Shown here: piece by piece, positions 1,302 to 16,195 of the stretch
How positions within the stretch are numbered: the stretch's first letter is position 1
Layout: each line of letters starts with the position of its first letter
Source: an uncultured virus (IMG/VR IMGVR_UViG_3300032038_000054)
Taxonomy: Duplodnaviria > Heunggongvirae > Uroviricota > Caudoviricetes
IMG/VR virus record: IMGVR_UViG_3300032038_000054
DNA: 20,000 bases
Direction: 5' to 3' (one strand)
Notes under the pieces: generated by a model
What the model saw: the letters and a program-made list of their open reading frames with translations, nothing else
What the model was told of the DNA's origin: nothing
The model's database searches: none
Made by a program: the position numbers and the translations under genes

Positions 1302-1324
1302 ACCATTCTCCTTTATAACAAATT

Positions 1325-1371: not shown

Positions 1372-1375
1372 GTTA

Positions 1376-1681: not shown

Positions 1682-1737
1682 TAATGCCGATGGAAGCCAA
1701 CCCTCATTTACTGCCTCAGTAAAACTACTATACTTTT

Positions 1738-2103
1738 TTACTTCTTTGTTGTGGTCTTCCTTGTCTGAGGCTTCTTGTGGTCTTGAGGAGTCGGACGATT
1801 CCCAAAACCCGCATCAGCCATAGCCTCTGTGAATACACCAAAGATATCCTCAAGTGAGCCACCATTGCCAAGATGCTGTGTAAGAAGTCTACCTGCCTCT
1901 CTAACAGGAATACCTGTCATTACAGCAAGAATACCTCTTGTCATAGTCATAAGCTTTGAACGGTCAAGACCTCCATCCATCATAGCCATTACATCAATTC
2001 CCTGTCCTTCAAGGTCACAAACAAGGTTTGTGAAATCAAGCTCTGCTACAGGAAGAAGCTGTGCGCCTTCTGCCGTCTGAATTGTAATTGTTCTTGTAAT
2101 CAT
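1738..2103 (-). CDS. Tail assembly chaperone (gpG-like)
   Basis: 121 aa with RBS AAAGGAGAA. Directly downstream of the major tail gene and contains a slippery heptamer. Confidence 0.8.
   Translation of the reverse strand: MITRTITIQTAEGAQLLPVAELDFTNLVCDLEGQGIDVMAMMDGGLDRSKLMTMTRGILAVMTGIPVREAGRLLTQHLGNGGSLEDIFGVFTEAMADAGFGNRPTPQDHKKPQTRKTTTKK
1804..1810 (-). promoter_or_regulatory. -1 programmed ribosomal frameshift site G GGT TTT
   Basis: In-frame X XXY YYZ heptamer at codons 98-100 of the chaperone. The -1 frame has a TGA two codons upstream and is open from the site to the stop at 1376. Confidence 0.8.
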
Positions 2104-2161
2104 AATTCTTTTTCTCCTTTTGTTCGCCTATAAACAAAATCGCCTAGTTTCTAATACATAG

Positions 2162-2190
2162 AAGGGGCAAGGCGTTAATCCTCGCCCCTT
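2162..2190 (-). terminator. Hairpin after the major tail protein gene
   Basis: Minus-strand stem AAGGGGCGAGG / CCTTGCCCCTT with a 7-nt loop. The U-tail is weak. Confidence 0.5.
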
Positions 2191-2241
2191 TCGTTTTTAG
2201 TATACCATATTAGATATCAATGTTAAAGGTTTACCTTTTTA

Positions 2242-2688
2242 TCAGCCACTAACTGACTCAACCTTCTTGATAGCCTGCTCACCCTCATCAGAGATAGTGA
2301 TTGTCATAGGAATTGCCGCATTTGACTCGTAGCCTCCAACGTAAACTGAAAGCTTACCCTGCCACTCGAACTTTCCGCCTACACCATCATCTCCAATCCA
2401 AACTTGGTATGTGTCAAGCTCCGATGCAGAAGTCTTGTCATAGTCAGCTTCCATGATAGACTGCAAGGTATCATAAATCTCTGAATCGTACCATGCACTG
2501 AACTCGTGAGAAGAAACTGTCTGAATACCATTCATGTTCTTCTGTTTTCTATCAGAAAGCGTTGTAATATCTATCTGCTCAGGCGCTCCACCTAAGTCGG
2601 GTACAGATGTAATATCACAAAGTTTTGAAAATGTTGCTGTTCCATTAGGTTTTCTGTAAAGATATGAAACATTAGATAATACTGCCAT
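2242..2688 (-). CDS. Major tail (tube) protein
   Basis: 148 aa with the PDLGGAPEQIDITTLSD motif typical of siphovirus tail tube proteins. Strong GGAGG RBS and expected synteny. Confidence 0.85.
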   Translation of the reverse strand: MAVLSNVSYLYRKPNGTATFSKLCDITSVPDLGGAPEQIDITTLSDRKQKNMNGIQTVSSHEFSAWYDSEIYDTLQSIMEADYDKTSASELDTYQVWIGDDGVGGKFEWQGKLSVYVGGYESNAAIPMTITISDEGEQAIKKVESVSG

Positions 2689-2797
2689 CTTTTTTCCTCC
2701 ATAAATTCCCTAGCCATAAGGGAGAATTGCCTATGTTAAAGGTTGGAAACCGCTAGGCAACGGCTTGTCGGATGCGCTTTCCTATCCAACCAATGTT

Positions 2798-3160
2798 CTA
2801 TACATCAAGCCTCTCGTATCTTGCCACGAAACGCTTTACGTTAGTAGGTGTCTCTATTGGTCTAAAGGTTCTACACCTAAATCCCAATGTTCTCATAAAG
2901 CTTCTAATTTCAGAAGCCATATTTCTTGCTTGATTCATGTTTCCATCCGTGTATGTTTCTATCTGAAATGCCAGTTTAACTCCTACTTCATTGTTAGAAA
3001 GGTCATCCAATGCAGTAGGTGCATCAAGCAAATAAAAGTACATATACGGAATTTTTACATCATTTTCATTGTAATTTTGACCTGTCTTAAGGTTTGGGTA
3101 CAGGCTTTTCATATATATACTTAAATCGTTATATATCTTATTTGTCTTATCTTCTACCAT
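2798..3160 (-). CDS. Tail terminator / tail completion protein
   Basis: 120 aa with a P-Y...FQIETY...MRTLGF pattern. Immediately upstream of the major tail gene. Confidence 0.7.
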   Translation of the reverse strand: MVEDKTNKIYNDLSIYMKSLYPNLKTGQNYNENDVKIPYMYFYLLDAPTALDDLSNNEVGVKLAFQIETYTDGNMNQARNMASEIRSFMRTLGFRCRTFRPIETPTNVKRFVARYERLDV

Positions 3161-3684
3161 TTAAGAACCTCATTCCTAATCTTTCTATGTTCTCCAATCA
3201 ATCTTTCAACCGCTCGATACATAAAAGGATTTGCGGGTATTCCGTTTGTTATATGCCATTTTCCATCTTCGCCTTTATACTTCCAGTAATCAAGACCTTC
3301 TTGATTATGTACAATATACGAACCAGTGTTCCAATAAATATTATAAGGCGGAGGTAAGGCATTTAACCATTCGTCATTTATTCCTTCATGGAGATTAAGA
3401 CCGATAATACCTGTTCCGAACTCTATAAACTGCACATGACCGTCAAAAACAACAACTCCTTCTGCACGTTCGCCATAATCATTGATATATACACTTTTCA
3501 TTAATCCTAGCGCACTACTCGGAGCTTCTTCTAACAAGAGTTCTTTGAAAGTTTCCATCATAGCTTCTGTATACTTCATAGGAAACTCTTTTAAAATCTT
3601 TTTATAAGTCTCGAGTTTCTTTATTGCTTCTTGTATACTAGATACTCTTAATGGATTAACTTTGATTACCTTGTCCATAACCAT
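3154..3684 (-). CDS. HK97 gp10-like neck/tail completion protein
   Basis: Contains the FIEFGTG and GIPANPFMYRA motifs, plus expected synteny. The start may be 3684 or 3678. Confidence 0.75.
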   Translation of the reverse strand: MVMDKVIKVNPLRVSSIQEAIKKLETYKKILKEFPMKYTEAMMETFKELLLEEAPSSALGLMKSVYINDYGERAEGVVVFDGHVQFIEFGTGIIGLNLHEGINDEWLNALPPPYNIYWNTGSYIVHNQEGLDYWKYKGEDGKWHITNGIPANPFMYRAVERLIGEHRKIRNEVLKW

Positions 3685-4051
3685 CTATCCTTTGGATAGC
3701 CCATACTCTTTGATATAAGCCTTTTGCAACTTTCTTGACTATATAATCTGGTTTTGTATCTGTCGAACCATCCTCTTTAAAGTCAGGCGCTACATCTATA
3801 AAAAGCTTTGAATACTCATTAATCGGCAAATCCTGCACTGTTGAAATCATCTTGTCATATACAAGGTCTCTTCCAAAAGGCGTGTCGTATATTTCTGAGG
3901 TATTCGCGCTTATCATCGCTTTTGCCTTGATAGGATTTGAATAGCTAGGTACAGTATCTCCCGTCAAATACCCGTCATCATCGACTTCCTCTACTTCACC
4001 GATATATGTTTGATAATAAAATTCTCTTTGATTACCGCTATAGTCAAACAT
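3656..4051 (-). CDS. Head closure (stopper) protein
   Basis: 131 aa, beta-rich, with an EVDDDGYLTG N-terminal pattern. Synteny after the connector gene. Confidence 0.65.
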   Translation of the reverse strand: MFDYSGNQREFYYQTYIGEVEEVDDDGYLTGDTVPSYSNPIKAKAMISANTSEIYDTPFGRDLVYDKMISTVQDLPINEYSKLFIDVAPDFKEDGSTDTKPDYIVKKVAKGLYQRVWAIQRIDGYGQGNQS

Positions 4052-4063
4052 TTAACCACCTTC

Positions 4064-4393
4064 TTACCAAACATAAGTTTTTACTGGTATCTGACTTAAA
4101 CTGCTACCTATGCTTTCATCGCCACCAGACTGCCAAACTCTCCTAACGCCAAGCTCTGAAAATTCTTTCAAGCCATCGCGTTTAGCTACGTCTAAAGTTG
4201 TTTTAGCAAGGTCATAAATTTCATACTCATATCTGTTTATGAAATTCTCACGTTCCTCTGCGGTAGGTATATCACCCTCACCCCAAAAGTAATGATTTAA
4301 TGCCATGCTTGTTGCTCTATCAAGTAGCACTTCAAGCTGTGCGTCCGTAAAAGAAGTTTCTCCGATTATAGCTTTAAAAGTTTCTATACTCAT
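4064..4393 (-). CDS. Head-tail connector (adaptor) protein
   Basis: 109 aa, helical, with an SPP1 gp15-like pattern (DGLKEFSELGVRRVW). Follows the capsid gene. Confidence 0.7.
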   Translation of the reverse strand: MSIETFKAIIGETSFTDAQLEVLLDRATSMALNHYFWGEGDIPTAEERENFINRYEYEIYDLAKTTLDVAKRDGLKEFSELGVRRVWQSGGDESIGSSLSQIPVKTYVW

Positions 4394-4408
4394 ATCAACC
4401 TCTTTTTA

Positions 4409-4435
4409 TCGGCTAGGACGTTTCATCCTAGCCGA
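4409..4435. terminator. Perfect 10-bp hairpin downstream of the capsid gene
   Basis: TCGGCTAGGA / TCCTAGCCGA with a 7-nt loop. No U-tract on the minus (sense) strand, so it may be a stability element or a terminator of antisense transcription. Confidence 0.45.
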
Positions 4436-4448
4436 CTTATTTTTAATA

Positions 4449-5414
4449 TCAGCCCGATACTACTGAATCCTCGGGGAAGTCCTCAGAAAGACCAGTAATC
4501 TTAGCTGAGAGCCATTCTGCACCGTGGTCGAGACCAATCATACCGTAAATCTGATAGTTGTCACCTGCACCAGTCTTTGCAAGAGGCTCAAGGAAGAAGT
4601 TACCCTTGTTAGGAGTAATCTGCTCCATAGGACGCATGATTGAAGGATTAAACACAAGTGCTGTTCCTACAGGGATTGTAGGCATAAGCTGTACTGCTAC
4701 TGCTCCGAAAGGTGTAAGCACTGTCTGAATCTGCAAACCATTGATGTTACGCTCTCTAGGAACTGCTGACATGCCGTTCTTATTAGCGTCATAATCAAGC
4801 TGTGCAAGGTGTACTGCTGACATACCAACAACGATATTAGAAATATCGCCACCTGCATTAGCGATTGCCATAAGTGCCTTTGAGATAAGATTACGTGTGA
4901 GATAATCACCACCTGCGTTAATCTCGTTGGTAGTAATTGCTGTAAGAATACCTCTTGACTTGTTTACCTCGTTGTCAGTTGTAGCCTTATTGAATACACC
5001 GTTGATAAATGTATACTCAATATCCTGTGCAATCTTAGCCATTGCTCTCTCAATCTGGAATGTAAGTTCACTCTGAGGGTTAGGCTGTTGTCCTGCAACG
5101 TTAACGCCGCTCATTGTTCCCATGTTAGCCTCTTTTGCGTAAGATACGCTTACAGACTCTTGGAAAATCTGAGTAACGTTTGTCAACTGGCTTCTTGTTG
5201 AAACAAGAGCTTCGGGCGCTGTAAGTGAAGCGCTCTCTGAGATATTAGGCTGTGAACCCTGTACCGCATTGTAATACTGTCCTGTTACAAATTCCACATG
5301 ATTAGTAGTTCCTCTATTAGCTCCGATAATTGTTGAAAAAGGAGTTGTCTCAACGCCCTTTCTGAACAACATTCCGCTAAAATTGGGAGTACCAAAACTC
5401 ATAGCTGTTGCCAT
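4449..5414 (-). CDS. Major capsid protein (HK97 fold, DUF5309/SU10-like)
   Basis: 321 aa. Motifs TPFSTIIG, NVTQIFQESVSVS, QDIEYTFING and LAKTGA. Strong AAGGAGG RBS, and it follows the scaffold gene. Confidence 0.88.
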   Translation of the reverse strand: MATAMSFGTPNFSGMLFRKGVETTPFSTIIGANRGTTNHVEFVTGQYYNAVQGSQPNISESASLTAPEALVSTRSQLTNVTQIFQESVSVSYAKEANMGTMSGVNVAGQQPNPQSELTFQIERAMAKIAQDIEYTFINGVFNKATTDNEVNKSRGILTAITTNEINAGGDYLTRNLISKALMAIANAGGDISNIVVGMSAVHLAQLDYDANKNGMSAVPRERNINGLQIQTVLTPFGAVAVQLMPTIPVGTALVFNPSIMRPMEQITPNKGNFFLEPLAKTGAGDNYQIYGMIGLDHGAEWLSAKITGLSEDFPEDSVVSG

Positions 5415-5433
5415 TTCTTTTCCTCCTTAATGG

Positions 5434-6069
5434 TTATTGTGCGTTCTGTTGCGCCCCCATAAGCTGAGCTGTAATAGCTCCTTGAAGGTCGCCAGACGCA
5501 AGCTTTTCTTGATAAATTTTGTTATAATCAATCTGCCCGTTACCATTTCCAGAAGCGGGTTCTGGCATGTGTGCGTACAACTCTGCTGTAGTCTCTTCCT
5601 TGACTCTCTTTCTTTCGGATTCCAAAAATCCCTTGAGAAGAGTATTTACAGCCTCCTCTTCGCCTTCCATCTTCATCTGTGCAACTTTTGTTGCATAGTC
5701 TTTATCCATTCCAAGCGCAAGGTAGCTGTCAACAGAATCCCTAAAAGCATTTTTCTTTTTCTCTTTTTCAAGCTCATCTCTCATAAGAGCAATCTCTTCG
5801 GTTTGCTGTGTTGTTAGCGAACTCTCAGATGCAATCTTTTCGCTTAGTTGTTTCTTTAAGCTACTAATCTGGCTTGAATAGTCGTCTATTATCTTCTTTT
5901 GCTTGCGAAGTTCAATCTGCATAGAAGCATTTGCCTTCAAAAGCTCAGAATCTTTAGGTTGTTCTACGTTCTGCCCTTCTTGTGTAGCAGTTGAATTAAC
6001 ATCCTGCTGTTCAAGGTTCTGCTCGTTCTGGTTAACAGTAGCGTTCTGATTGTTATTACTAAGTTCCAT
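5434..6069 (-). CDS. Capsid scaffolding protein
   Basis: 211 aa, Q/E/K-rich coiled-coil with a low-complexity N-terminus. Directly upstream of the capsid gene. Confidence 0.8.
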   Translation of the reverse strand: MELSNNNQNATVNQNEQNLEQQDVNSTATQEGQNVEQPKDSELLKANASMQIELRKQKKIIDDYSSQISSLKKQLSEKIASESSLTTQQTEEIALMRDELEKEKKKNAFRDSVDSYLALGMDKDYATKVAQMKMEGEEEAVNTLLKGFLESERKRVKEETTAELYAHMPEPASGNGNGQIDYNKIYQEKLASGDLQGAITAQLMGAQQNAQ

Positions 6070-6176
6070 GTTTAATTCTCCTTTGCGTTTAAATTTATTA
6101 CACGCTTTTCTCTAAGCGAGTGCGTTTACAGTTCTCTCTGATTTATTTATATGTAAAAGGCTTATAGCCTCGAACA

Positions 6177-6869
6177 TCATTTATATTCTGTAGAACATCT
6201 ACAGTTGTCAAGCTCACTTTCACTTGCTCCGAGTGAATCATCTCCCGCAAACATCATTTGAGAAGTACCAACATTAAAAGGTTCATCTATATCTACCGTA
6301 ACGCCTTCCATAATTTCATGGGTAGGTCTTACTCTTTCATCTAATGATGTATGCCATATCTTTTTCTTGTTTTTCGCTTTTGCCTCGAAATATTCTTCAT
6401 TGTTATATTTCCAATTGGCTTCATTTAATGCGATTAAATTTGCTCTCGATTGACCGAGCCATGTTTCTATTTTGTCTGAGTTTGCGATTATAGCACTTAC
6501 CGCAACTCCTTTTATTACTGAATCTACAAAATCATCAGCATCATTACGTTTGTTTTTAGCAGGAATAGCTGTTATATTGTTCCAAGTTACTTCTTGTATC
6601 TTTGAAGCTTTTCTAAAAGCCCTGTCTATAACCACCTTTGAATATGCGTCATTGGCGGTTATAGACGTTTTTGTTATCTCAAGATACTTGTCAACCATTT
6701 TATCTATATAAGCCTCTTGATTACTCTTAAAACTGCCATTTAAGATATCTGCAAATTCCTCGTCAAACAAGTCCATAAACCAGTTTTCAAGTTCTTCCGC
6801 AAGAAGTATTCTTTTTGCTTTTTGAGGCTCTGTTATTAACATTGATGCATAAAACAGTTCTGGCTTCAT
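6177..6869 (-). CDS. Minor head / head morphogenesis protein (Mu gpF / SPP1 gp7-like)
   Basis: C-terminal KKKIWHTSLDERVRPTH...PFNVG...NCRC motif. Follows the portal gene. Confidence 0.85.
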   Translation of the reverse strand: MKPELFYASMLITEPQKAKRILLAEELENWFMDLFDEEFADILNGSFKSNQEAYIDKMVDKYLEITKTSITANDAYSKVVIDRAFRKASKIQEVTWNNITAIPAKNKRNDADDFVDSVIKGVAVSAIIANSDKIETWLGQSRANLIALNEANWKYNNEEYFEAKAKNKKKIWHTSLDERVRPTHEIMEGVTVDIDEPFNVGTSQMMFAGDDSLGASESELDNCRCSTEYK

Positions 6870-8416
6870 TCGTTTTCTACCTGTGCTACAGATGAAGGCT
6901 GAATCGACTCAGCGACTTGTGATTTCTTTTCGTTATTTTCTCCACCCGCGCCATCTTCGCTCTTACTTGTAGCGTCAACACCTTCGTTTGCAATCTTTTT
7001 CTGAGATTGTTCTATCACTTCTCTTGAATCGAGCCATGCCTGTTCTGAATCTGAGAACAAACCTACTGTCTGGAATGCCCAAAGACCATCTACTCCCGAA
7101 TTGAGAAGCGTTGCCAGTGCGTTTGCCTTTGATATAAGGTCATAGTTCTTATTTCTTGGCATTGATATTTCTATATCAGATACATCTATTTTTGAGATGT
7201 TGTTGAAATGTCTCTTATCAAGTTCGATGCTTTTAGCAACAAGTCTCAAGATTTCATTCTCTGGCTCTGTGAAATTCTGCTCCACTGCCTTTGCTGAAAG
7301 CTCTAGGCTCTGCCATCCATTTGAAAGTTGCATTGCCCCTGTGGTAGAACCACCGCTTGCTTCTTGCCAAGAAGGTGTTGCAGTTATTTCTTCAACTTGT
7401 CTGCTTAAGAAATCTGCGAACGATTGAATCTGTCCTTGGTCTAATACTTGAGAAAGATATGCTATTTTAGCTTCTTTTCCATCACCATTCGACTTTGTGA
7501 CAATCACTCCGTCTCCATCAATCAGCTTTTTCTTTTTTTCTTCATCAATCATGCAGTTGTGAAGCCAAAGCAATGACTGAACATGTTGTGCAACATCGTT
7601 TATTCTATCTGAATTAAGAGTATTTATTCCATCAAGAATAGGTATTGCTTTTTCAAAAACACCCATTCTATCAGTGTTTTCAAACTCTACGATAGGAATT
7701 ATGCCGTACACATTAACTGTTTCATCAACAATCGTGTTTGCATTGCCTACCACATAGTTCTTTATTGTAAAGCACTTATTAGGAGTGTATAACGTTGCAG
7801 TCATACTTCCATCTGCGTGTGTATTATAAGTTCCTCTTAATAGAGTTTCTCTAAACGCATCGTTTCTTACTACACTAAATGTCGTGAGAGGGTTAAGTGT
7901 GGTGATTTTAAATGGAGAATATTGATAGGATTTATCGTTTCTCCAAACCATTTGATAACCAACACCGCATGTCATAAAATCTCTTGCAAGTTGCAGGTCT
8001 TTTTTTGCCTTACTCTGCTCAGCCATCATTTTATTTATCATGGCTATGTTATCACTATCCTCATTATATGAGGTCTGAGGTTTTCTCGAATCATCCTCGA
8101 CTTTTCCTCTTTGAGCATAAGTAATAGGATTTCCAAAACAGTAACCTACATGAGTGTCAACAATCCTTGATGCTATATTAATTACCAACTTTTCATTTAT
8201 ATCTGGACGAATATCTTTTTTTCTTTCTATAATAGGCTGTTTACCTCTTGTATAGCTAAAAAGAAATTCCTCTCGCATAGCATTTTTTTGATGTTCTGAA
8301 TAGGCAGTTTCAAAGATTTCTAGTACATTATCTTTGGTAACTTCTTCAACATCTGTATATATAATTATTCTTCCATACGTGGAATCAGCGTTTACAATAA
8401 CAGGCGTTGGATTCAT
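6866..8416 (-). CDS. Portal protein (SPP1 gp6-like)
   Basis: 516 aa. Motifs NEKLVINIASRIVDTHVGYCFGNPITY and YGIIPIVEFEN, with an acidic tail. Downstream of the terminase. Confidence 0.9.
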   Translation of the reverse strand: MNPTPVIVNADSTYGRIIIYTDVEEVTKDNVLEIFETAYSEHQKNAMREEFLFSYTRGKQPIIERKKDIRPDINEKLVINIASRIVDTHVGYCFGNPITYAQRGKVEDDSRKPQTSYNEDSDNIAMINKMMAEQSKAKKDLQLARDFMTCGVGYQMVWRNDKSYQYSPFKITTLNPLTTFSVVRNDAFRETLLRGTYNTHADGSMTATLYTPNKCFTIKNYVVGNANTIVDETVNVYGIIPIVEFENTDRMGVFEKAIPILDGINTLNSDRINDVAQHVQSLLWLHNCMIDEEKKKKLIDGDGVIVTKSNGDGKEAKIAYLSQVLDQGQIQSFADFLSRQVEEITATPSWQEASGGSTTGAMQLSNGWQSLELSAKAVEQNFTEPENEILRLVAKSIELDKRHFNNISKIDVSDIEISMPRNKNYDLISKANALATLLNSGVDGLWAFQTVGLFSDSEQAWLDSREVIEQSQKKIANEGVDATSKSEDGAGGENNEKKSQVAESIQPSSVAQVENE

Positions 8417-8428
8417 GCCTATCCTCCT

Positions 8429-8468
8429 AAAAAAAATAGAACCGAATTGGTTTCAATTCGGCTCTATT
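8429..8468 (-). terminator. Intrinsic terminator-like hairpin directly before the portal RBS
   Basis: Minus strand AATAGAGCCGAATTG-AAAC-CAATTCGGTTCTATT followed by a T-run and then AGGAGG. Confidence 0.65.
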
Positions 8469-8484
8469 GGCTCTCACTATAGTG

Positions 8485-8513
8485 ATTATAGCAAGGTTTA
8501 CCAATCTCTACAA
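8485..8513 (-). promoter_or_regulatory. Putative sigma-A-type promoter for the head/tail genes
   Basis: TTGTAG (8513-8508), a 17-nt spacer ending in TGC (extended -10 TG), then TATAAT (8490-8485). Confidence 0.55.
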
Positions 8514-8549
8514 TACCTTTGTTTATTTTATGTAGCTTTTTTAATATGT

Positions 8550-9041
8550 TTACTTCTCTTGGTCTGCGTTTTGTACTGCTTCTAACGCTAAATCTTTCCT
8601 GTTTTTATATTGTTTACGTTTTCTTTTTGCTCTTTTTACGATGTATCGCTTGCCCTCCTTCTGTCCAAAAGGAGTCCTTGCGCCATAATATTGCTTATAC
8701 TCTGGATAGAGCGGAAGTACCTTTGCTATGGTTAAATCCTCAAGAGGTCTCCTTCCACATATGATTTCTCTAAGCATTTTAGCGCATTTAAACTGTAAAA
8801 CCCATCGGTAAACATGGTCTGCACCATTAGGGTTGATTTCGTTTTTAGGTATCTTAAAAAGCCTTCTATGTAGATAAAAACGCCCGATTCCTTTAATATC
8901 AAGGTCTGCTTCCGCAGGATTAGACATTAACTCTTCAACACCAACCCTAAGTGCCGTCAGTAACACTTCCTTTACCAAAGCACGAGGTATATTACTTTTT
9001 GTTTCCCTCGTTGTCTGGTCGCACCATTCTCCAAAAGTCAT
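8550..9041 (-). CDS. HU/IHF-like DNA-binding protein with a basic C-terminal tail
   Basis: The pattern LVKEVL...IKGIGRF...NP...LQFKCAKMLREII matches the HU/IHF fold. The C-terminus is K/R-rich. Confidence 0.55.
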   Translation of the reverse strand: MTFGEWCDQTTRETKSNIPRALVKEVLLTALRVGVEELMSNPAEADLDIKGIGRFYLHRRLFKIPKNEINPNGADHVYRWVLQFKCAKMLREIICGRRPLEDLTIAKVLPLYPEYKQYYGARTPFGQKEGKRYIVKRAKRKRKQYKNRKDLALEAVQNADQEK

Positions 9042-9050
9042 ATAATCACC

Positions 9051-10715
9051 TCAGAATCCTAAACTAGCTCTGCTAATTATCTCTACTTGAGAACTCTCAA
9101 AAGAATTTATATAAAGAGCTAACATAGCAAGAGCATCAACACCATCATCATGTTTATTCTTTCCCATTTGCACATAAGAAAGAACACCTTGCATGAATTT
9201 CTTGTACATATCCGTCCATTCGGAGGGGTCTTTAAATACTACATGCTTCTTTACCCAGTCCGAATTAACAATAATCTTTGTCTCTTTGTTTGTCGTGGTA
9301 TACTTCTTTGTTATAGAGCATCTTCCGCCTTTTTCGTTTACCAGACGTTGAACCTCGTTTCCTGTCCTAGAACCCTCTTTATTCGATTCAAACTGGCACA
9401 TCTGAACCTTATTCCTAACCAGACAGTTCGCATTTAGTTCATCTAACGTATATGGAGAGCCATTATCATACACAACATCTTCAAGATAGAACTTCTTTCC
9501 GTAGCCATAAACAACTAACAAACAGTTAAAGTCAGTTCCTACGTCCTTTGTATCACATACGCCTAATATAGAGTCGGCTTCTTTTGTCTTGCCTTCATCG
9601 TCACAAGGAAGCCCGCCAAGATAGAACTGTAATTCCTCTTTCTTATAAAGTAATCCTTCTCTTTCAATCGGGTCTGACATATATAAGCACTTAAAGGTGA
9701 TTTCATCCATGACATTTTCCATTTCTTTGAAATAGAAAGTATCAAACCCCTTATCGTATTTATAATCAAACTGACTTTCCCCGTTTTCATCATAGCAACC
9801 ATAAGCCAAGAATCGCGCTCTGTCATTACCTTCATTTTCCCTTATAAAGTGACCTATGGGGTCATGCACAGACCATCTGGTAGCTATTGATATTTCCTTA
9901 CACCCTTTTATTCGTCTTGATTTTGCATCGTTCACGTATTTCTGATAAAGGTTTTCAAGTCTTTGTACGTTCATAGCTTCTTCTGTTCCCGAAACCAAGT
10001 CATCACTCAAGATAATGCCACTTGCTCTCGTTACACCCGTCATTGAAGCATCAATTGAACGACACGTAAGAGATTTAAAGGGCTTATAGCTATTAAGGTT
10101 TATATATTTTTCTTTATCAGACCTTGATTCAAGTTTTACATTGGGGAATATCTCTTCCCATGCATATTCTCCGCTAAACATTATGTCACACATCGAACGA
10201 TGAAACATATCTGCGATTGTTCCTGTATAGGAAACATAAAGATTGAAACTATCTGGGAACAAGCCCATATAGAAAGATAAAAAGAACTCGGCAAGAGTTG
10301 TTTTGCCTGCCCCCGGAACTACTGAAACCGTTAATATATCGAGCTTATCGTCTAATATGTCTTGAAAACCTTGTACAATACCCAGTTTATTCTTTAATAT
10401 TTCTCTTCTAGGCAAATAAAATTGAGCATCTGGTTCTCTTTTATGTTCAAGAAATATCATGTAAGAGTCAAAATCCTTAAAATACCTTGCAAGATATTTC
10501 AAGGATAGAAGGTATACTTCATAAAAGGCGGGGTTCTTTACGGTCTGAACCAGTGCAATATTCCTGCCTTTTTCGCATACCCTACGTCCTTCTTCTTCAT
10601 CATTATCTGCAAGGTAGATATTTTGCCCCATTTCTATAAAATCTTTTAGACGCTTCGGATTCGTCTTTAAATCTGGGGATAATTCTAATCGTTTGATAAT
10701 CGTTTTATTATTCAT
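9051..10715 (-). CDS. terL: Terminase large subunit
   Basis: Walker A PGAGKT, Walker B-like ILSDD, ATRW coupling motif, and C-terminal nuclease motif HDDGVDAL. Confidence 0.92.
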   Translation of the reverse strand: MNNKTIIKRLELSPDLKTNPKRLKDFIEMGQNIYLADNDEEEGRRVCEKGRNIALVQTVKNPAFYEVYLLSLKYLARYFKDFDSYMIFLEHKREPDAQFYLPRREILKNKLGIVQGFQDILDDKLDILTVSVVPGAGKTTLAEFFLSFYMGLFPDSFNLYVSYTGTIADMFHRSMCDIMFSGEYAWEEIFPNVKLESRSDKEKYINLNSYKPFKSLTCRSIDASMTGVTRASGIILSDDLVSGTEEAMNVQRLENLYQKYVNDAKSRRIKGCKEISIATRWSVHDPIGHFIRENEGNDRARFLAYGCYDENGESQFDYKYDKGFDTFYFKEMENVMDEITFKCLYMSDPIEREGLLYKKEELQFYLGGLPCDDEGKTKEADSILGVCDTKDVGTDFNCLLVVYGYGKKFYLEDVVYDNGSPYTLDELNANCLVRNKVQMCQFESNKEGSRTGNEVQRLVNEKGGRCSITKKYTTTNKETKIIVNSDWVKKHVVFKDPSEWTDMYKKFMQGVLSYVQMGKNKHDDGVDALAMLALYINSFESSQVEIISRASLGF

Positions 10716-10957
10716 ATTATTGGCATATCGTATTTTGCTTCGGAATCCATGGAATCATGCAATTCTGAAAGAATTTCTGTAGCTCTCGATTCTCTTTTGT
10801 ATTGTCCTAGCAGATACGCAACCTCCCCGCCTAAATTTAGCAAGAAAAGTCCATAGGCGCTATTATCAACGTCTACCAACTTGCTCTCTTGAATATATAC
10901 ACCTAAAAATTTACTTGTATCGTAAATCGCTTTTCCATCTTGCGTCTTTATAAACAT
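10712..10957 (-). CDS. Hypothetical protein
   Basis: 81 aa with an ATGA overlap onto terL. Composition is typical of small phage proteins. Confidence 0.7.
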   Translation of the reverse strand: MFIKTQDGKAIYDTSKFLGVYIQESKLVDVDNSAYGLFLLNLGGEVAYLLGQYKRESRATEILSELHDSMDSEAKYDMPII

Positions 10958-11013
10958 TAAATCAACAGCAAAGCGCCACCCGCTTTTACACGAATGGCGC
11001 TTCGGCTCTCCTT

Positions 11014-11337
11014 TTATTTTATTTCAACGGGCAAATCTGCTAGCTTATACTGCTTCCATTCGCCACCAAAATAAATACTTGCATCTTCTCCATTGATAAG
11101 ACCTTTATATGGTCTGCCCTTCCAGAAATAAGCAAAATCTTCTAAAAATACAAAAGTTACCTGTTTTAAGTCCGAAGGTATCTCGTAGCTTGTCTGAGTT
11201 TCGCCGCTAATACCTTGCATGACTAAATCATGGAACAGAGCGCTCCTAGTGGTATTATTTCGCTTAACGTACCAATCAATCTTATCAATCTCGTCCTCTG
11301 TGAATTTACTTGCTACTGTTATAGACTTACCCATCAT
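11014..11337 (-). CDS. Ribbon-helix-helix (CopG-like) domain protein
   Basis: N-terminal TVASKFTEDEIDKIDWYVKRNNTTRSALFHDLV has a beta-alpha-alpha pattern. RBS AAGGAGG. Confidence 0.6.
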   Translation of the reverse strand: MMGKSITVASKFTEDEIDKIDWYVKRNNTTRSALFHDLVMQGISGETQTSYEIPSDLKQVTFVFLEDFAYFWKGRPYKGLINGEDASIYFGGEWKQYKLADLPVEIK

Positions 11338-11345
11338 ACTCCTCC

Positions 11346-11948
11346 TTAATCAACGTCAATGATATCGCCCTCTATCAAGGGTATATCATCCATAGGTATT
11401 CTGTTTGCAATATCTGCAATGTTTGTCTCGACTTGCTGTAATGAAATGTTTGAATTGATAGTTGTTTCTGTTCTTGCTTGAACGTAGTCATGGTTATTAT
11501 TCATATCCTGCATGAACGCCAATGAATTAATAAGCCCCGCGTAAGCATTTTGCTTTTTACATCCTGCAATCGCTGTAGCGATATTATTAGCAACTTCTGC
11601 AAGTTCTACATCCTCAGACCTTCTATACTTCAAAAAAACAGGTCTTGAGATTTTTGCGAACGTACAGAAGTCCTCTATATCTGGAATTATAGTAACTTCA
11701 TTTTCATTCGCTTCTACAATATTTTCAAAGTATTCTCTGGCTTTTTCATAGAGAGTCTCTGCATTATATGTGACTCTTTTTCGCTTGTTCTGTATGGTAA
11801 TCTCTTCACCAGTTTCAATCACTCCGAACATGTTCTCAAGCTGTCTTTTTGCAAGGTCTACATTCCATTGTCTACGTTTTTCGTCCTTATTAAGCGCTTT
11901 GCCTCTATTGTAGTCTACGCCTCGCTTTTTACTGTAATTAGCCATCAT
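11346..11948 (-). CDS. Terminase small subunit (putative)
   Basis: YNAETLYEKAREYF...PDIEDFCTFAKISR HTH resembles P22 gp3-type small terminases. Located upstream of terL. Confidence 0.65.
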   Translation of the reverse strand: MMANYSKKRGVDYNRGKALNKDEKRRQWNVDLAKRQLENMFGVIETGEEITIQNKRKRVTYNAETLYEKAREYFENIVEANENEVTIIPDIEDFCTFAKISRPVFLKYRRSEDVELAEVANNIATAIAGCKKQNAYAGLINSLAFMQDMNNNHDYVQARTETTINSNISLQQVETNIADIANRIPMDDIPLIEGDIIDVD

Positions 11949-11954
11949 AGCCTC

Positions 11955-12119
11955 CTACACGTTTACTAAAAATACTTTTTTGCAATTACTTCCCTTACAT
12001 TTAACAGGAAGGTTTTTTATTTTTGTGTCATCTCGCAGTAAAAGTGTTTTCTTACCGCAATATGGGCAACACACCCACTCTTGTCCGTTGTTATCTTCTC
12101 TAATAGTACCCTCTTTCAT
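11955..12119 (-). CDS. Cysteine-rich KTR-like zinc-ribbon protein (54 aa)
   Basis: Not in the ORF track. MKEGTIREDNNGQEWVCCPYCGKKTLLLRDDTKIKNLPVKCKGSNCKKVFLVNV, with an ATGA overlap on the upstream gene. Confidence 0.75.
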   Translation of the reverse strand: MKEGTIREDNNGQEWVCCPYCGKKTLLLRDDTKIKNLPVKCKGSNCKKVFLVNV

Positions 12120-12337
12120 CTGTTAATCCTCTTCATGGCATCGTTAAGCTGTTTACATTCTACTACAAGTTCCTCTTCGGTCTCAAATAAATCGCTTTCC
12201 TTGAAATATTCATTGCCATACTTCGTATGAACATAATATAATTTAGAGCTATCGGGCATTATTATTTCTTTCATCGTCACAAATCTTACTATCTCTGCGT
12301 TGTAGTCCTTTACTACTATTACATACCCTTCCCTCAT
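12116..12337 (-). CDS. Hypothetical protein
   Basis: 73 aa with RBS AAGGGG, in operon order. Confidence 0.7.
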   Translation of the reverse strand: MREGYVIVVKDYNAEIVRFVTMKEIIMPDSSKLYYVHTKYGNEYFKESDLFETEEELVVECKQLNDAMKRINR

Positions 12338-12349
12338 AATTAATCCCCT

Positions 12350-12778
12350 TTATTTCGTTCCAGTAGAACCTATGCCGCCCCTATCTGAGTTTCCGAGCGT
12401 TTCAACCTCTTCAAATTCTATTGTAGGCTGATGCTCAAAAATCCTAAACTGACAGATTCGGGTGTTTTTCTCTATGAATGTGTCTTCTGTTGCGTATGCG
12501 GGAAAACACCACTGGTCGTTATCACCGCAATAAGATTCATCAATGATACCTACGCTGTTTGAAAGAAGAATCTTATGCTTTTTGTAAGTAGAACTACGAG
12601 GATATACATGAGCTTCATAGCCTTTAGGTAGCTCCATTGCGATTCCAAGAGGAATCAGCTTAAGCTCTCCCTTCTTAATCACGGTATCTTCAGCACACCT
12701 CAAATCAATAAGGTCTCCTACTGAAATCTTCTCAATCTTATCAATGTCTTTGCTTAAATACTTAATCCTTATCTTCAT
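12350..12778 (-). CDS. dut: Trimeric dUTPase
   Basis: Motifs PRSS, GIIDESY, RICQ and C-terminal RGGIGSTG. Confidence 0.95.
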
Positions 12779-13118
12779 TCTCTAACTCCTGTTCACTAAG
12801 TTTTATTCGCACATCTTCGTAAGATGCAACTATTTTAGGTATCAGCCATGCAATCCACTCTACAAGGTTCTCGTCATCATCATAATGAGTGCCTGTTTCT
12901 CGGCTGTAAGCATGAACTAATTCGTGCAACAGAACTTCCTTCACCGCTACAAGGCGTTCCTCGTCTGTTACGTCTCCTTCAAGAATAATCTCTGGTTTTC
13001 TAACAATGATTTCGTGCAGATAGCACTTACATAACCCCGCTTTATCCAACAACAGCGGATTACGTAAGTCGTCTAATTTGACTTGGTACTCCGTACCTAA
13101 GATGTTTGTAGATACCAT
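12762..13118 (-). CDS. HEXXH zinc metallopeptidase-like protein (118 aa)
   Basis: Contains LLHELVHAY...ENLVE. The start was moved to the ATG at 13118 (MVSTNILG), which follows a purine-rich RBS. Confidence 0.7.
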
Positions 13119-13313
13119 ATGCCCCCTTTCCCTCCTTATAGGAGGTGACGCGCATAGCCCCTTACAATAAGTTACCATGCGCGTCCATACATACAACGTT
13201 ATAAACAAAAGACCACTGATAGTGGCGAATTAGTTACTAGGCTTTGACACCTAGTAACCGTCACGAAAGGAAAGACAATCACGCCGCATCAGTTTCCCCA
13301 AACCTTACGGCGA

Positions 13314-13357
13314 AGATGCGGGTAGGAATCGAACCTACCTTAAGACCAAGCGCATCT
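13314..13357 (-). ncRNA. tRNA-like minihelix 1 (acceptor stem + T-arm only)
   Basis: AGATGCG-CTTGGTCTTAA-GGTAGG-TTCGATT-CCTACC-CGCATCT. Confidence 0.65.
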
Positions 13358-13415
13358 GCCTCAACAGAAAGGATAAAAAATATGAAAAAACCCACACCCA
13401 TCCAAAAGACAGGAA

Positions 13416-13455
13416 GCCGTAGGCGAGAGTTGAACTCGCATAACCCATCTACAGC
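13416..13455 (-). ncRNA. tRNA-like minihelix 2 (acceptor stem + T-arm only)
   Basis: GCTGTAG-ATGGGTTAT-GCGAG-TTCAACT-CTCGC-CTACGGC, a canonical 7+5 bp stack. Confidence 0.7.
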
Positions 13456-13480
13456 ATCACATTTCAATAAACCTTTACTG

Positions 13481-13590
13481 CGCCAGACTTGCAGTGTTTT
13501 AAACTTATCAATGTGTCGTATAAAGTATGCGCCGTCGAAAAATCTTGATTGCTAGATTTTAAGTATACTTTACACATAAGTTTTTTGGCG
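13481..13590 (-). ncRNA. Long bulged hairpin RNA of unknown type
   Basis: Nested inverted repeats: CGCCA/TGGCG, AAACTTAT/ATAAGTTT, ATGTGT/ACACAT, TAAAGTAT/ATACTTTA and AAAATCT/AGATTTT. Confidence 0.5.
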
Positions 13591-13622
13591 TTGATGCAAT
13601 CATTTAATGCTACCAAGGTATA

Positions 13623-13681
13623 ATGCGACGGTAGGAGTCGAACCTACGTCATGTTTCGTTCTGCCGTTGAACTACGTCGCA
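13623..13681 (-). ncRNA. tRNA-like RNA lacking the anticodon arm
   Basis: TGCGACG-TA-GTTC-AACGGCA-GAAC-GAAACATGAC-GTAGG-TTCGACT-CCTAC-CGTCGCA. Acceptor, D and T arms are perfect, and a 10-nt linker replaces the anticodon arm and variable loop. Confidence 0.75.
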
Positions 13682-13753
13682 CCTAATGCTCAGATATTTT
13701 GAGGGGGAATATCTGAAAAGGTAGAACCAAATGGCAAACTGGTTTCCCAGTGA

Positions 13754-13824
13754 CGGCGCTGATAGGAGTTGAACCTACGTCTAGGCAGTCAAAGTGCCAT
13801 GCACTACCGTTGTGCTACAGCGCT
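13754..13824 (-). tRNA. tRNA-Gln(TTG)
   Basis: AGCGCTG-TA-GCAC-AACGGTA-GTGC-A-TGGCA-CTTTGAC-TGCCT-AGAC-GTAGG-TTCAACT-CCTAT-CAGCGCC-G. It has a 1:72 mismatch, a G discriminator and no encoded CCA. Confidence 0.88.
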
Positions 13825-13827
13825 ATC

Positions 13828-13998
13828 TCATCTATTAGTAGTATACCTCATATTTGATGATAAGTAAACCTTTTCTTTTAATTTTTCTTCCCAATGTTTA
13901 CAAGACATTTTATCATCAGTAAGATTATATCGCTCATCGCTATTCCTACAACAACAAACGCCGCACGTATGCCATCTACAAGTATTACATTCTTTCAT
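13828..13998 (-). CDS. Small Cys-rich protein (56 aa)
   Basis: Not in the ORF track. MKECNTCRWHTCGVCCCRNSDERYNLTDDKMSCKHWEEK..., with RBS GAGGTG. Confidence 0.6.
   Translation of the reverse strand: MKECNTCRWHTCGVCCCRNSDERYNLTDDKMSCKHWEEKLKEKVYLSSNMRYTTNR
13840..13868 (-). promoter_or_regulatory. Putative promoter of the tRNA/sRNA cluster
   Basis: TTTACT, a 17-nt spacer, then TATACT ending 15 nt upstream of the tRNA-Gln 5' end. Confidence 0.5.
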
Positions 13999-14164
13999 TT
14001 ACACACCTCGTCTTTTTCTGTCTAAACTGCTTAAACCAATTACAGATGCCGTCGCTTTCTACTTCGTCATTTTTCAACTTACAAAAATAATACGGGCGTT
14101 CTTCTTCGCCATCCCACTCATAATTAAAGTCACAATAAGAGCAATCACTGCATTGCAGACGCAT
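13985..14164 (-). CDS. Small Cys-rich protein
   Basis: CSDCSYC...C...C pattern. ATG at 14164 follows GAGAGG. Confidence 0.65.
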   Translation of the reverse strand: MRLQCSDCSYCDFNYEWDGEEERPYYFCKLKNDEVESDGICNWFKQFRQKKTRCVNERM

Positions 14165-14318
14165 CTTCAATCAACCTCTCTACATCACTATACTTTGCGG
14201 CATATACGTCCAGTTTACTGCCCGCATTGACAGTTAAAAGCACTTCGTCATTCCCATTGGGCGTTATCCTTACAATATACCTCTCGTTTACCCATCCACC
14301 GTTTAATATCTTAATCAT
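14145..14318 (-). CDS. Hypothetical protein (57 aa)
   Basis: Not in the ORF track. MIKILNGGWVNERYIVRITPNGNDEVLLTV..., with RBS AAGGAGG. It fills the gap in the operon. Confidence 0.7.
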   Translation of the reverse strand: MIKILNGGWVNERYIVRITPNGNDEVLLTVNAGSKLDVYAAKYSDVERLIEDASAMQ

Positions 14319-14541
14319 AATACCTCCTTATCTCGTTAGCGACATAATCCTGCACCCATTCCCTTGTCGCTAAATCGCCTATATCTGTCGTTGAGCGATG
14401 CTTTAATGAGTTTATCAAGTCTTCACCCAAGCTATCAAGAAGAGTAAACCAATATCCATCCTCATGCCCGTCTCTCCTAGCAAGCCTCTTTTTATCCGCA
14501 ATCCTTTTTCTAATATCCTCTTTCTTAATCGAAGTAAACAT
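14311..14541 (-). CDS. Hypothetical protein
   Basis: 76 aa with RBS AAGGGGG. Overlaps both neighbours. Confidence 0.7.
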   Translation of the reverse strand: MFTSIKKEDIRKRIADKKRLARRDGHEDGYWFTLLDSLGEDLINSLKHRSTTDIGDLATREWVQDYVANEIRRYYD

Positions 14542-14743
14542 ACTTTACCCCCTTCACTCTATATCTTGACCTACCCTTAAGCTCTATATCGCCTCTTTTT
14601 ACCAGATTAGAGAAGTGTCTATGCACGGATGCTATACTAGACAATCCTATACCCTCGCCTATGTCTCTCATGGTAGGTGTAACGCCCTCTCTTATCATAT
14701 AGGCTTTAATAAACTCTAAGACTTCATCTCGCTTCACGCCCAA
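14525..14743 (-). CDS. LexA-type winged-helix DNA-binding protein (no peptidase domain)
   Basis: EVLEFIKAYMIREGVTPTMRDIGEGIGLSSIASVHRHFSNLVKRGDI matches the LexA N-terminal domain. The protein is only 72 aa. Confidence 0.8.
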   Translation of the reverse strand: MGVKRDEVLEFIKAYMIREGVTPTMRDIGEGIGLSSIASVHRHFSNLVKRGDIELKGRSRYRVKGVKYVYFD

Positions 14744-15144
14744 TCCTCCGTTCCTTTATCCATATCATACAGGCTCTCAATCACTCTTCGCTTCATCTCG
14801 TCCTTCTTCTTATCCGTGACCTCTAAGGCATCAATCACTTCATCAACCGATATATAGTCCTCTTCGATGACCTTATTCTGATATCTGAACTTACCTTCCT
14901 CATCACGATAGATTAACTCTTTATCAAGCAGAAATCTGAATATCTTGGCTAAATGCCCTACATCAGTGCCTATCTCTTCCGCTATCTCGTCAAATAGCCC
15001 GACATTCCATCCCATTAGTTTACCTCTTATTACCTCAGATAAGCTCAGACCAGTCATACTCGCTTCATCCCGTAGCATCTTCATCTGTTCACTGTTTACT
15101 CTCACTCTAAGAGTCTCACACAAATCTTCTGTTGGTCTGCTCAT
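14734..15144 (-). CDS. RHH-domain DNA-binding protein
   Basis: N-terminal TLRVRVNSEQMKMLRDEASMTGLSLSEVIRGKL (CopG/MobC-like), with a possible wHTH in the middle. Confidence 0.6.
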   Translation of the reverse strand: MSRPTEDLCETLRVRVNSEQMKMLRDEASMTGLSLSEVIRGKLMGWNVGLFDEIAEEIGTDVGHLAKIFRFLLDKELIYRDEEGKFRYQNKVIEEDYISVDEVIDALEVTDKKKDEMKRRVIESLYDMDKGTEDWA

Positions 15145-15331
15145 TTCTTATCTCCCTTAATGCTCTATAAATCTCTTTTTCATCACACCCACCTTGCTCT
15201 GCCCTGTCAATGGTCTCTACAAGGTATTTTAAGGCATCTATGCTCTTTATCGCCATATTTATAGCCCATTCTTTCTCCGCGGGTGATACTGGCTCTCCAT
15301 TTAGTATCTCTTTAGCCCTCTTTGTCCACAT
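15116..15331 (-). CDS. Hypothetical protein
   Basis: 71 aa with RBS AAGGAGG. Confidence 0.7.
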   Translation of the reverse strand: MWTKRAKEILNGEPVSPAEKEWAINMAIKSIDALKYLVETIDRAEQGGCDEKEIYRALREIRNEQTNRRFV

Positions 15332-15340
15332 AAGTCCTCC

Positions 15341-15472
15341 TTATATTTCATAAAAATTGCATGTTTTTTTCATGTTTATTTCATAAGAACTTCTGCTTTA
15401 TTTCCTAAAAATTTCATGTTTATTGCATGGTTTTTTCATGTTTTTCTCATGGTTATTGCATCAATTTTGCAC
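15341..15472. repeat. Degenerate 11-bp tandem repeat, about 12 units (consensus about GTTTWTTKCAT)
   Basis: CAT starts at 15349, 15360, 15371, 15382, 15415, 15426, 15437, 15448 and 15459, an exact 11-bp register. Degenerate units fill 15393, 15404 and 15470. Confidence 0.8.
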
Positions 15473-15717: not shown

Positions 15718-15744
15718 AACTCTCCTTTCTATTTGCAAAATGAG

Positions 15745-16163
15745 TTTTGTGGTACAAAACGTTACCCTAAAAAGTTTTGTGGTACAAAACATTACCCTAA
15801 TTGAGTTTTGTGGTACAAAACCCTTACCTTAAAAAGTTTTGTGGTACAAAATGCAGAGTTTTGTGGTACAAAACTATTTATTTTGTGGTACAAAACTCGA
15901 AACCCGCTCTGGTACTGAGTTATTTTGTGGTACAAAACTATTTCGAGGGGTTTTGTGGTACAAAATTCTAGGGTTTTGGGGTACAAAACTATTACCTTAT
16001 CTGGGTTTTGTGGTACAAAACTCTCTCTTTTCTCTATTTTTAGTATCGGCATATATAGCAAAATGACACTTTTTTAGAGTGTTTTGTGGTACAAAACTCA
16101 GAAAGCCCATAACCACGCGGTTTTATTTTGTGGTACAAAACTATCGGGTTTTGTGGTACAAAA
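15745..16163. repeat. Array of 13 quasi-palindromic 15-mers TTTTGT-GGT-ACAAAA
   Basis: Copies start at 15745, 15775, 15806, 15837, 15859, 15881, 15923, 15951, 15974 (one-base variant), 16006, 16082, 16126 and 16149. All have the same orientation. Confidence 0.95.
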
Positions 16164-16165
16164 CT

Positions 16166-16195
16166 ATTTTATAACCGAATAGGGTATGGTGTCAA
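16166..16195 (-). promoter_or_regulatory. Leftward sigma-A-type promoter
   Basis: TTGACA (16195-16190) with either TATAAA (16-nt spacer) or TAAAAT (18-nt spacer). It fires across the 15-mer array toward the gene starting at 15717. Confidence 0.65.

Follow-up and report, generated by a model that had tools for sequence, protein, structure and literature searches.

The window analysed here is a stretch of 20,000 nucleotides (nt) from an uncultured virus of the class Caudoviricetes (IMG/VR record IMGVR_UViG_3300032038_000054), and the subject is its non-coding stretch 13120-13830, in which a glutamine transfer RNA (tRNA) gene is followed by three tRNA-like units without an anticodon arm. The stretch lies inside a block of same-strand genes, all genes from 1 to 15331 being on the minus strand and plus-strand genes beginning near 17490, and we take it for the end part of a phage tRNA gene array that is probably transcribed, from the minus strand, together with the neighbouring genes. 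Its features are, in transcription order (bp, base pairs; E, expectation value; "scanner", the structural search described below):

13752-13825, minus strand: tRNA-Gln(UUG), the sole canonical tRNA in the window (ARAGORN; Rfam tRNA, 61.6 bits at 13754-13824)
13682-13753, minus strand: spacer S1, 72 nt (sequence and fold)
13623-13681, minus strand: unit A, tRNA-like without anticodon arm (Rfam tRNA, 45.2 bits, E 4e-08; cut-off 29 bits)
13456-13622, minus strand: spacer S2, 167 nt, AT-rich
13415-13455, minus strand: unit B, acceptor/T-arm minihelix (scanner; Rfam tRNA, 16.1 bits, E 4.1)
13385-13413, minus strand: terminator-like hairpin and U-run in spacer S3 (consensus scan)
13314-13356, minus strand: unit C, acceptor/T-arm minihelix (scanner; weak Rfam tRNA-Sec match, 21.1 bits)
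13200-13313, minus strand: spacer S4, with a 9-bp hairpin, 13233-13241 with 13250-13258 (sequence and fold)

Anatomy of the tRNA-like units

The three units share a 7-bp acceptor stem stacked on a 5-bp T arm with a consensus T loop, unit A having lost the anticodon arm and units B and C both the D and the anticodon arm. None has an anticodon arm with a 7-nt loop, a D arm is present in unit A only and, judged by their sequences, the units cannot decode codons. In unit A, the acceptor stem is paired at 7/7 and the T stem at 5/5 positions, the D arm reads GUUC-AACGGCA-GAAC and the T arm GUAGG-UUCGACU-CCUAC, and a 10-nt linker stands in the place of the anticodon arm; by the scanner, 27 nt separate the 5' strand of the acceptor from the T stem. 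The Rfam tRNA model aligns the acceptor, D and T arms of this unit and sets 5 nt against the 17 model positions of the anticodon arm. Unit B consists of GCUGUAG, a 9-nt linker, GCGAG-UUCAACU-CUCGC, CUACGGC and a discriminator U; its acceptor is paired at 7/7 positions, one of them G-U, and its T stem at 5/5. Unit C is built on the same plan (GAUGCG(C), a 12-nt linker, GUAGG-UUCGAUU-CCUAC, CCGCAUC, discriminator U); in this short form 6/7 acceptor and 5/5 T-stem positions are paired in the window, and an alternative 5' strand, GGUGUGG (13398-13392), gives 7/7 pairs, two of them G-U, in the 53-nt form from 13398 that is the scanner match. A CCA end is encoded in 0/4 genes (tRNA-Gln and units A, B and C). 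Units A and C carry GGTTCGAYTCC and unit B carries GAGTTCAACTC, to be compared with the T-arm motif GGTTCRANYCC of the t-elements discussed below.

ARAGORN calls none of the three units, and in a search of 12900-14100 with Rfam only tRNA-type matches were obtained, those to small nucleolar RNA and ToxT models lying far under their cut-offs. A match to the scanner must have a T stem of 5 bp, a loop that fits the T-loop consensus and, immediately after the T stem, an acceptor stem paired at 7/7 positions; on both strands of the window the scanner returns exactly three matches, all on the minus strand and within 13314-13681. In 1,825,126 bases of terminase-anchored loci, the same search found 218 distinct units on the terminase strand and a single match on the opposite strand, and since one wrong-strand match is met in about 1.8 Mb, three matches within 370 nt are not due to chance. 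The tRNA-like units that a preliminary description of the region had seen bounding the spacers are therefore real, by both Rfam and the scanner, and lie on the minus strand. The core of a phage attachment site (attP) was considered and rejected, because it would keep only the 3' part of a tRNA, and both acceptor strands are present here.

Retention of the units in related phages

Related loci are given below by L numbers. The closest (L002/L005) is a 91-kb IMG/VR contig, 97% identical over the region, in which tRNA-Gln is identical and the differences are confined to linkers and spacers, save for a 2-base indel in unit C. The stems of units A and B are unchanged there, unit B differing by one linker position, and the short form of unit C (13-nt linker) is paired at 7/7 acceptor positions and extendable to 9; the window allele of unit C is 2 nt shorter, with the loss of one acceptor pair.

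At a greater distance, L086, L008 and L009 (terminase 79-81% identical) have, behind a tRNA-Gln(UUG), tRNA-like genes to which gene finders give odd calls or none, and L010 (terminase 66%) has an aberrant tRNA-like unit 1.9 kb downstream of its sole Rfam tRNA match. The DNA past tRNA-Gln is hardly alignable between the window and these middle-distance relatives. When the best-matched unit of each lineage is taken (n=5), the acceptor stem is paired at 7/7 and the T stem at 5/5 positions in every case (60/60 pairs), with stem sequences that are almost wholly different; the window, L086 and L010 have no anticodon region, that of L008 is degenerate, with a loop of 8 nt, and that of L009 is expanded and reaches about 45 nt. 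The design of unit A recurs at L086 3827-3886 and L010 1999-2059. The aberrant gene of L008 (4620-4696) has the 8-nt loop UUUGAAAA, read as "tgaa" by ARAGORN, and L009 carries tRNA-like bodies of 92-105 nt at 3760-3851, 4534-4638 and 4675-4777 (Rfam tRNA, 37-40 bits).

Two further kinds of unusual tRNA genes were met among the relatives. A truncated anticodon loop ("gc" by ARAGORN) is found at L030 12044-12112, L039 11832-11899 and L045 11873-11943, where sister genomes have tRNA-Arg(ACG), and this is a polymorphism at the population level between a decoding and a non-decoding allele. In phages with 50-63% identical terminases, a family of tRNA-like genes of about 118-132 nt stands in tandem after ordinary tRNA arrays (L012 13646-14318, L090 889-1138, L116 4842-5630, L019 12996-13438, L050 9815-10236 and others). 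Its members have normal acceptor, D and T arms and an insert of 45-70 nt, match Rfam tRNA only (41-47 bits), and show covariation at 17/22 predicted pairs in a 22-sequence alignment. Within the insert, a covarying hairpin (..CA-UGUUWG-UG..) precedes ACAGCAA; behind the insert, a normal-looking anticodon arm is present in 18/62 distinct members (0-5 at control offsets), with the anticodons GGU, GGA, GAU, GUU, GAA and UUU. We know of no described family that resembles these genes.

A wider family of units without anticodon arm

Two narrow patterns, in which either of two common D-arm sequences is followed after 8-18 nt (about 27 nt in a normal tRNA) by GTTCRANTC, were run over IMG/VR and found 72 and 10 loci, in total 82, with 66 distinct sequences. 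Pairing of 7/7 acceptor and 5/5 T-stem positions is seen in 53 of these units, 6/7 and 5/5 in 16, and worse pairing in 13. Most linkers measure 8-10 nt, with a final GUC that resembles a variable loop, and the letters of the tertiary core are kept across the family (U8, A14, the D-loop GG, C48 and the T-loop consensus). In an alignment of 57 sequences, namely the window unit and the 56 of the 66 distinct units retained by a filter for pairing no worse than 6/7 and 5/5, 97.3% of the cells pair and 12/16 pairs change on both sides. Compensatory change between individual loci is the more telling observation: L216 and L220, with 0 and 2 differences in 40 flank positions, differ within the unit by one compensatory T-stem pair only, and L221 and L086, which have the D arm, linker and T loop in common, differ by seven compensatory pairs without any break.

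A normal tRNA lies within 400 nt at 23/82 loci, always on the same strand. At 15/82 loci (about 10 distinct contexts), a same-strand frame of at least 60 codons ends 6-12 nt ahead of the unit, and several units are followed by a ribosome-binding site (RBS) and ATG; this is the look that processing marks between cistrons would be expected to have. In a cluster formed by L205, L207 and L197 (acceptor GCGCCAU, CCA encoded), the unit has a hairpin resembling an intrinsic terminator on one side and the RBS of the following gene on the other, which places it in a 5' leader and not in a tRNA array. About 8/66 distinct units encode CCA after the discriminator. The T arm of unit B was found at 75 IMG/VR loci, 47 with acceptor pairing of single-tRNA size and 27 without 7/7 pairing, several of the latter resembling the ends of transfer-messenger RNA (tmRNA); the minihelix form occurs among these loci in this lineage only. 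A literature search, with most subscription journals outside its reach, found no anticodon-arm-less tRNA-like genes in phages.

Spacers and their hairpins

Spacer S1 contains a perfect 9-bp hairpin (13690-13698 with 13708-13716), whose minus-strand loop is CCCCCUCAA; the spacer is identical in L005 and cannot be aligned in L008 and L009. In S4, a terminator scan gave a terminator-like hairpin at 13226-13212, followed by a U-rich run. The first 45 nt or so of S2 form the hairpin UUGG...CCAA, followed by an A-run and CUU, and by alignment a motif of this kind (hairpin UUGG...CCAA or ACAG...CUGU, then A-run and CUU) stands behind one unit per lineage, directly after the corresponding unit in L010, L086, L008 and L009, with two covarying hairpin pairs. 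A profile of S2 that included the window matched just its source lineages, and its E-values are circular; a leave-one-out profile, made without the window lineage, gave one weak match (E 0.018, 8.4 bits) at the syntenic spot in L005, and none in the window itself or in L010. Pairwise BLAST did not detect the motif and gave tRNA-Gln alone. The conservation of S2 is thus no more than suggestive.

Traces in RNA libraries

Parts of the stretch are present in nine runs recorded as RNA, and contigs of four of them were aligned; the data are assembled Logan contigs, from which strand, true ends and levels are not readable, and the uncovered parts in X2, X3 and X9 carry no information. In X1, three contigs cover the whole stretch, two of them meeting at 13391, where one has adapter letters. 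The size-fractionated library X9 contributes one contig only; it runs from 13444 to 13608, where adapter letters follow, and corresponds in essence to spacer S2. Since contigs of RNA libraries carry the array region, it is probably transcribed. The longer allele of unit C is found in X1 and the shorter, window allele in X2; one X2 contig skips 13903-14023 and has 19 other letters instead, which looks like a strain difference. Position 13391 is the foot of the terminator-like hairpin and 13608 the loop of the S2 hairpin, neither being a predicted tRNA-processing site.

Possible processing modules, decaying tRNAs or tRNA mimics

The reading that we prefer, tentatively and with a probability of about 0.45, is that the units may be non-decoding tRNA remnants kept as processing modules for ribonuclease (RNase) P and RNase Z. 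With their acceptor/T-arm stack and no encoded CCA, units A-C appear to hold what the two enzymes need. In tRNA maturation of the Bacillus type, precursors without an encoded CCA are substrates of RNase Z, and the window units, which encode none, would thus be RNase Z substrates. A phage tRNA that is not needed for decoding could freely lose its anticodon arm, and the remaining acceptor/T-arm "top half" would be the recognition element for host RNase P and RNase Z. With mutations in the top half, part of the transcript would stay uncut and misfold, and selection for clean processing would preserve the top half in vestigial tRNAs. The units would cut the read-through transcript, parting the messenger RNA (mRNA) of the small genes upstream from that of the SprT, dUTPase and terminase genes, and the spacers would be by-products or ordinary structured leader or terminator elements. 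It is from sequence that we infer both the cleavage and its effect on mRNA fate.

Several observations weigh against this reading. The acceptor pair lost from the window allele of unit C looks like relaxed constraint; units B and C are known from this lineage only, with stems unchanged between the window and L005, and thus offer no evidence of covariation. The 97.3% pairing of the wider family is partly circular, the alignment having been pre-filtered for paired stems and its members sharing tRNA ancestry, and intact stems would also be seen if working tRNAs had suffered the deletions only recently, or if recombination had replaced the units. In a control scan, normal tRNAs with the same D arm numbered at least 119 among the matches listed. 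No tRNA lies within 400 nt of 59/82 armless units, so that their retention cannot in general be put down to the processing of tRNAs nearby. The contig ends (13608 and 13444 in X9, 13391 in X1) lie off the predicted RNase P/Z sites and off the unit borders, at which the preliminary description had placed the cuts; as contigs cannot show true ends, they neither support nor refute processing.

The strongest competitor is plain decay, by which the units would be functionless pseudogenes, left by internal deletions in a larger tRNA array, with stems still intact through recency or refreshing recombination. Such an origin would suit the polymorphic anticodon-loop truncation in L030, L039 and L045, the resemblance of the L008 unit to a Phe(GAA) tRNA whose anticodon stem is degenerating, and the pair lost from unit C in the window. 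It is harder to reconcile with the 12/12 stem pairs in all five lineage units despite almost complete sequence divergence, with the compensatory changes between the near-identical loci L216 and L220 and between L221 and L086, and with the tertiary-core letters kept across the armless family; three successive truncated units with intact top halves are likewise unlike random decay. We regard plain decay as unlikely, but far from negligible.

Another explanation takes the units for tRNA mimics, stable small RNAs that would gain CCA and work by way of the acceptor end and the elbow, either as decoys or sponges for host enzymes or defence toxins that contact tRNA outside the anticodon, or charged for a non-translational use. 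The elbow of D loop and T loop and the core are kept beyond the needs of a bare cleavage signal, about 8/66 distinct units encode CCA, 59/82 stand away from tRNA genes, and T4 likewise yields, from its tRNA region, two small RNAs with a role given as unknown (PMC3014915). On the other side, there is no sign of accumulation, CCA addition, charging or a partner, no conserved identity element was seen, and units B and C are without the elbow, which makes the explanation rather improbable. A broader proposal, which we hold to be doubtful, is that phages maintain a widespread class of working armless tRNA mimics of 58-64 nt (acceptor, D arm, 8-14-nt linker, T arm), extended in this lineage to bare minihelices; these would be either RNase P/Z punctuation of polycistronic transcripts, freeing small RNAs such as spacer S2, or stable decoys for host tRNA-binding enzymes or defence toxins via acceptor end and elbow.

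The spacers as proposed anti-RBS RNAs

In the preliminary description, the spacers were taken for small RNAs that tRNA-processing enzymes would free and that would act in trans on the Shine-Dalgarno (SD) and start regions of phage or host mRNAs. The starting point was a set of initiation-site look-alikes on the plus strand, at 13715-13739, 13701-13707 (GAGGGGG), 13366-13390 and 13263-13276, all of which are present; GAGGGGG does lie in the loop of the perfect 9-bp stem of S1, and the strings quoted from early-gene starts exist as well (CAAATGGCA at 18592, ACGAAAGGA at 18578, AAAGGA at 17477 and 19731, ATGAAAAA at 17492 and 19747). The targets used here were the 31 start regions of the window (-25 to +15), at which SD sequences are strong, and the background was given by dinucleotide shuffles. 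The plus strand of 13200-13753 shares 17 8-mers with these regions (13.7 +/- 5.0 in shuffles; reached in 141/500), five 9-mers (3.7 +/- 2.4; 161/500) and no 10-mers (1.0 in shuffles, n=500), and the sharing of k-mers is therefore at chance. SD-like pentamers on this strand number 6 (2.2 +/- 1.7; 19/500 shuffles reach this), a mild excess that comes mostly from one G-run, GAGGGGG.

The four minus-strand spacers were paired with the 31 start regions by RNAduplex, with 200 shuffles each and 12 tests. For S2, S3 and S4, z of the duplex energies ranges from -0.3 to +1.4 over the three measures, and start regions are paired no better than internal coding controls. For S1, with CCCCCUC in its 9-nt hairpin loop, the best target is unremarkable (44/200 shuffles as good), and the mean energy over all targets (z -2.6, 2/200 shuffles) is not significant after 12 tests; a low mean of this kind would be expected of a loop that is generically anti-SD, and the signal is weak. 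The spacers pair better than coding minus-strand segments, an effect of composition, since those segments are purine-rich mRNA. The relatives do keep scaffolds of this kind; the candidate seeds are not kept at 63-81% terminase identity, where S1 cannot be aligned, and S1 and the quoted seeds are preserved solely in the 97% identical relative.

The proposal can thus point to an existing tRNA-like scaffold, to the loop of S1 with a mean duplex energy below that of 198/200 shuffles, to the lone X9 contig on the stretch, which covers S2, and to the motif common to four related phages with which S2 opens. Given chance-level k-mer sharing, pairing of three of the four spacers no better than background and of the fourth only generically anti-SD, an outcome that the preliminary description had itself named as a refutation, and contig ends away from the unit borders, we accord it little credence. 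Read on the opposite strand, the RBS-like strings are pyrimidine-rich tracts, and their frequency is at chance level: look-alikes of this kind are expected by chance on the strand antisense to a pyrimidine-rich spacer and are no evidence for an anti-RBS RNA.

One further feature belongs to this strand:

13382-13558, plus strand: open frame of 58 codons behind AGAAAGGA-N8-ATG, judged to be no gene

That the look-alikes at ATG 13382 and ATG 13731 head real small genes has next to no chance of being true, even with the 58-codon frame behind AGAAAGGA-N8-ATG open in L005 as well, since the frame at 13382 has no Pfam family match, shows four replacements and 0 silent changes against L005 and is antisense to unit B, that at 13731 has 13 codons only, and every neighbouring gene is on the opposite strand; the preliminary description had likewise seen no convincing gene behind them.

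Comparison with known systems

Truncated tRNA genes and pseudogenes are known in phage tRNA arrays, where they arise by internal deletion, lie within the cluster and are missed by gene finders. The units differ from these in that the top half is intact in three successive units and in the units of four related lineages, and in that the design of unit A is met again, compensatory changes included, at 82 other viral loci. In the tRNA-microRNA transcripts of murine gammaherpesvirus 68, a viral tRNA-like handle allows processing enzymes to free an adjacent small RNA; that system is eukaryotic, works with polymerase III, tRNase Z and Dicer, and releases RNAs with shown targets, whereas none is shown for the window spacers.

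Synthetic acceptor/T-arm minihelices are substrates of RNase P, RNase Z and the CCA-adding enzyme. Units B and C share their architecture (7 + 5 stacked bp and a T loop) but are natural and genome-encoded, and their role as substrates is a prediction. Acceptor, T-arm and D-loop elements without an anticodon are also found in the tRNA-like domain of tmRNA and in the module of the bacterial Y RNA YrlA. In YrlA, unlike in the window units, the free ends are on the other side of the module. A tmRNA has a G3:U70 pair and an mRNA-like part, and units A-C are without both; it was rejected as a candidate, as ARAGORN finds none, unit B has U3:G70 and not G3:U70, and the Rfam tmRNA match comprises 18 T-arm positions only.

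The T4 RNAs named RNAC and RNAD are reported to have tRNA-like ends. RNAC and RNAD are non-tRNA small RNAs from the T4 tRNA region with a role given as unknown (PMC3014915); the window units, as non-tRNA RNAs in a phage tRNA cluster, are likened to them by location only.

A precedent is offered by the t-elements of plant mitochondria (Forner et al., 2007; PMC1920247), tRNA-like structures at which mRNAs are cleaved by the two enzymes RNase P and RNase Z. They resemble the window units in being non-canonical, in joining a T arm of the form GGTTCRANYCC to an acceptor-like stem, and in lying within long transcripts; they are taken as cis-signals that create mRNA ends, simple acceptor-like stem-loops being included (PMC1920247). 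They are organellar, with ends mapped experimentally, whereas the window units belong to a phage tRNA array, beside a working tRNA, and are known from sequence alone.

Phage and gene context

The genes around the array that serve to place it are the following:

9051-10715, minus strand: terminase large subunit
11346-11948, minus strand: gp3-type packaging protein
12350-12778, minus strand: dUTPase (Pfam, E 3.6e-16), after the SprT-like gene in transcription order
12762-13121, minus strand: SprT-like metallopeptidase, the first gene downstream of the array (weak Pfam match, E 1.3e-4, under the curated cut-off)

A LexA-type DNA-binding domain (E 9.6e-12) is recognised in the 72-amino-acid product of 14525-14743 on the minus strand, one of the small genes upstream of the array. 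In the gap that parts the leftward genes from the rightward ones, at least 11 copies of TTTTGTGGTACAAAAC lie at 15731-16166, at a spacing of 22-92 nt, a repeat field that looks like an iteron or operator field, possibly an origin; a second set of repeats, of the ATTTCAT type, is found at 15345-15461.

The terminase is 46% identical to those of uncultured gut phages and 40% identical to that of Clostridium phage Maintenon, the nearest public relatives by this protein, and the sequence is present in runs recorded as sheep and bovine gut metagenomes. The nearest genome record, G001, matches window positions 1-8662 only, which do not include the array region, and blastn of 13000-14000 against known phage records gave no match. 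The terminase of the window has 554 amino acids and is without insert, and several close homologues (P0008, P0032, P0040, P0048 and others) have about 900 and carry a LAGLIDADG (PF14528) insert, presumably an intein. A related gut phage (L003, MT835477) has a RAGATH-18 RNA at 5940-6012 (72.7 bits), about 3 kb upstream of its terminase gene.

Meaning for phage tRNA genes

Phage tRNA genes are usually discussed as decoders only, in terms of codon usage and of escape from anticodon nucleases. If the anticodon-less top half proves to be under selection, phage tRNA genes would also serve a structural purpose, be it as processing marks or as mimics, and many of the "pseudo-tRNAs" that annotation discards would be explained. 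The units would then also give a rule by which transcript ends may be predicted in uncultured phages, and would provide natural, compact RNase P/Z handles for transcripts that carry multiple RNAs.

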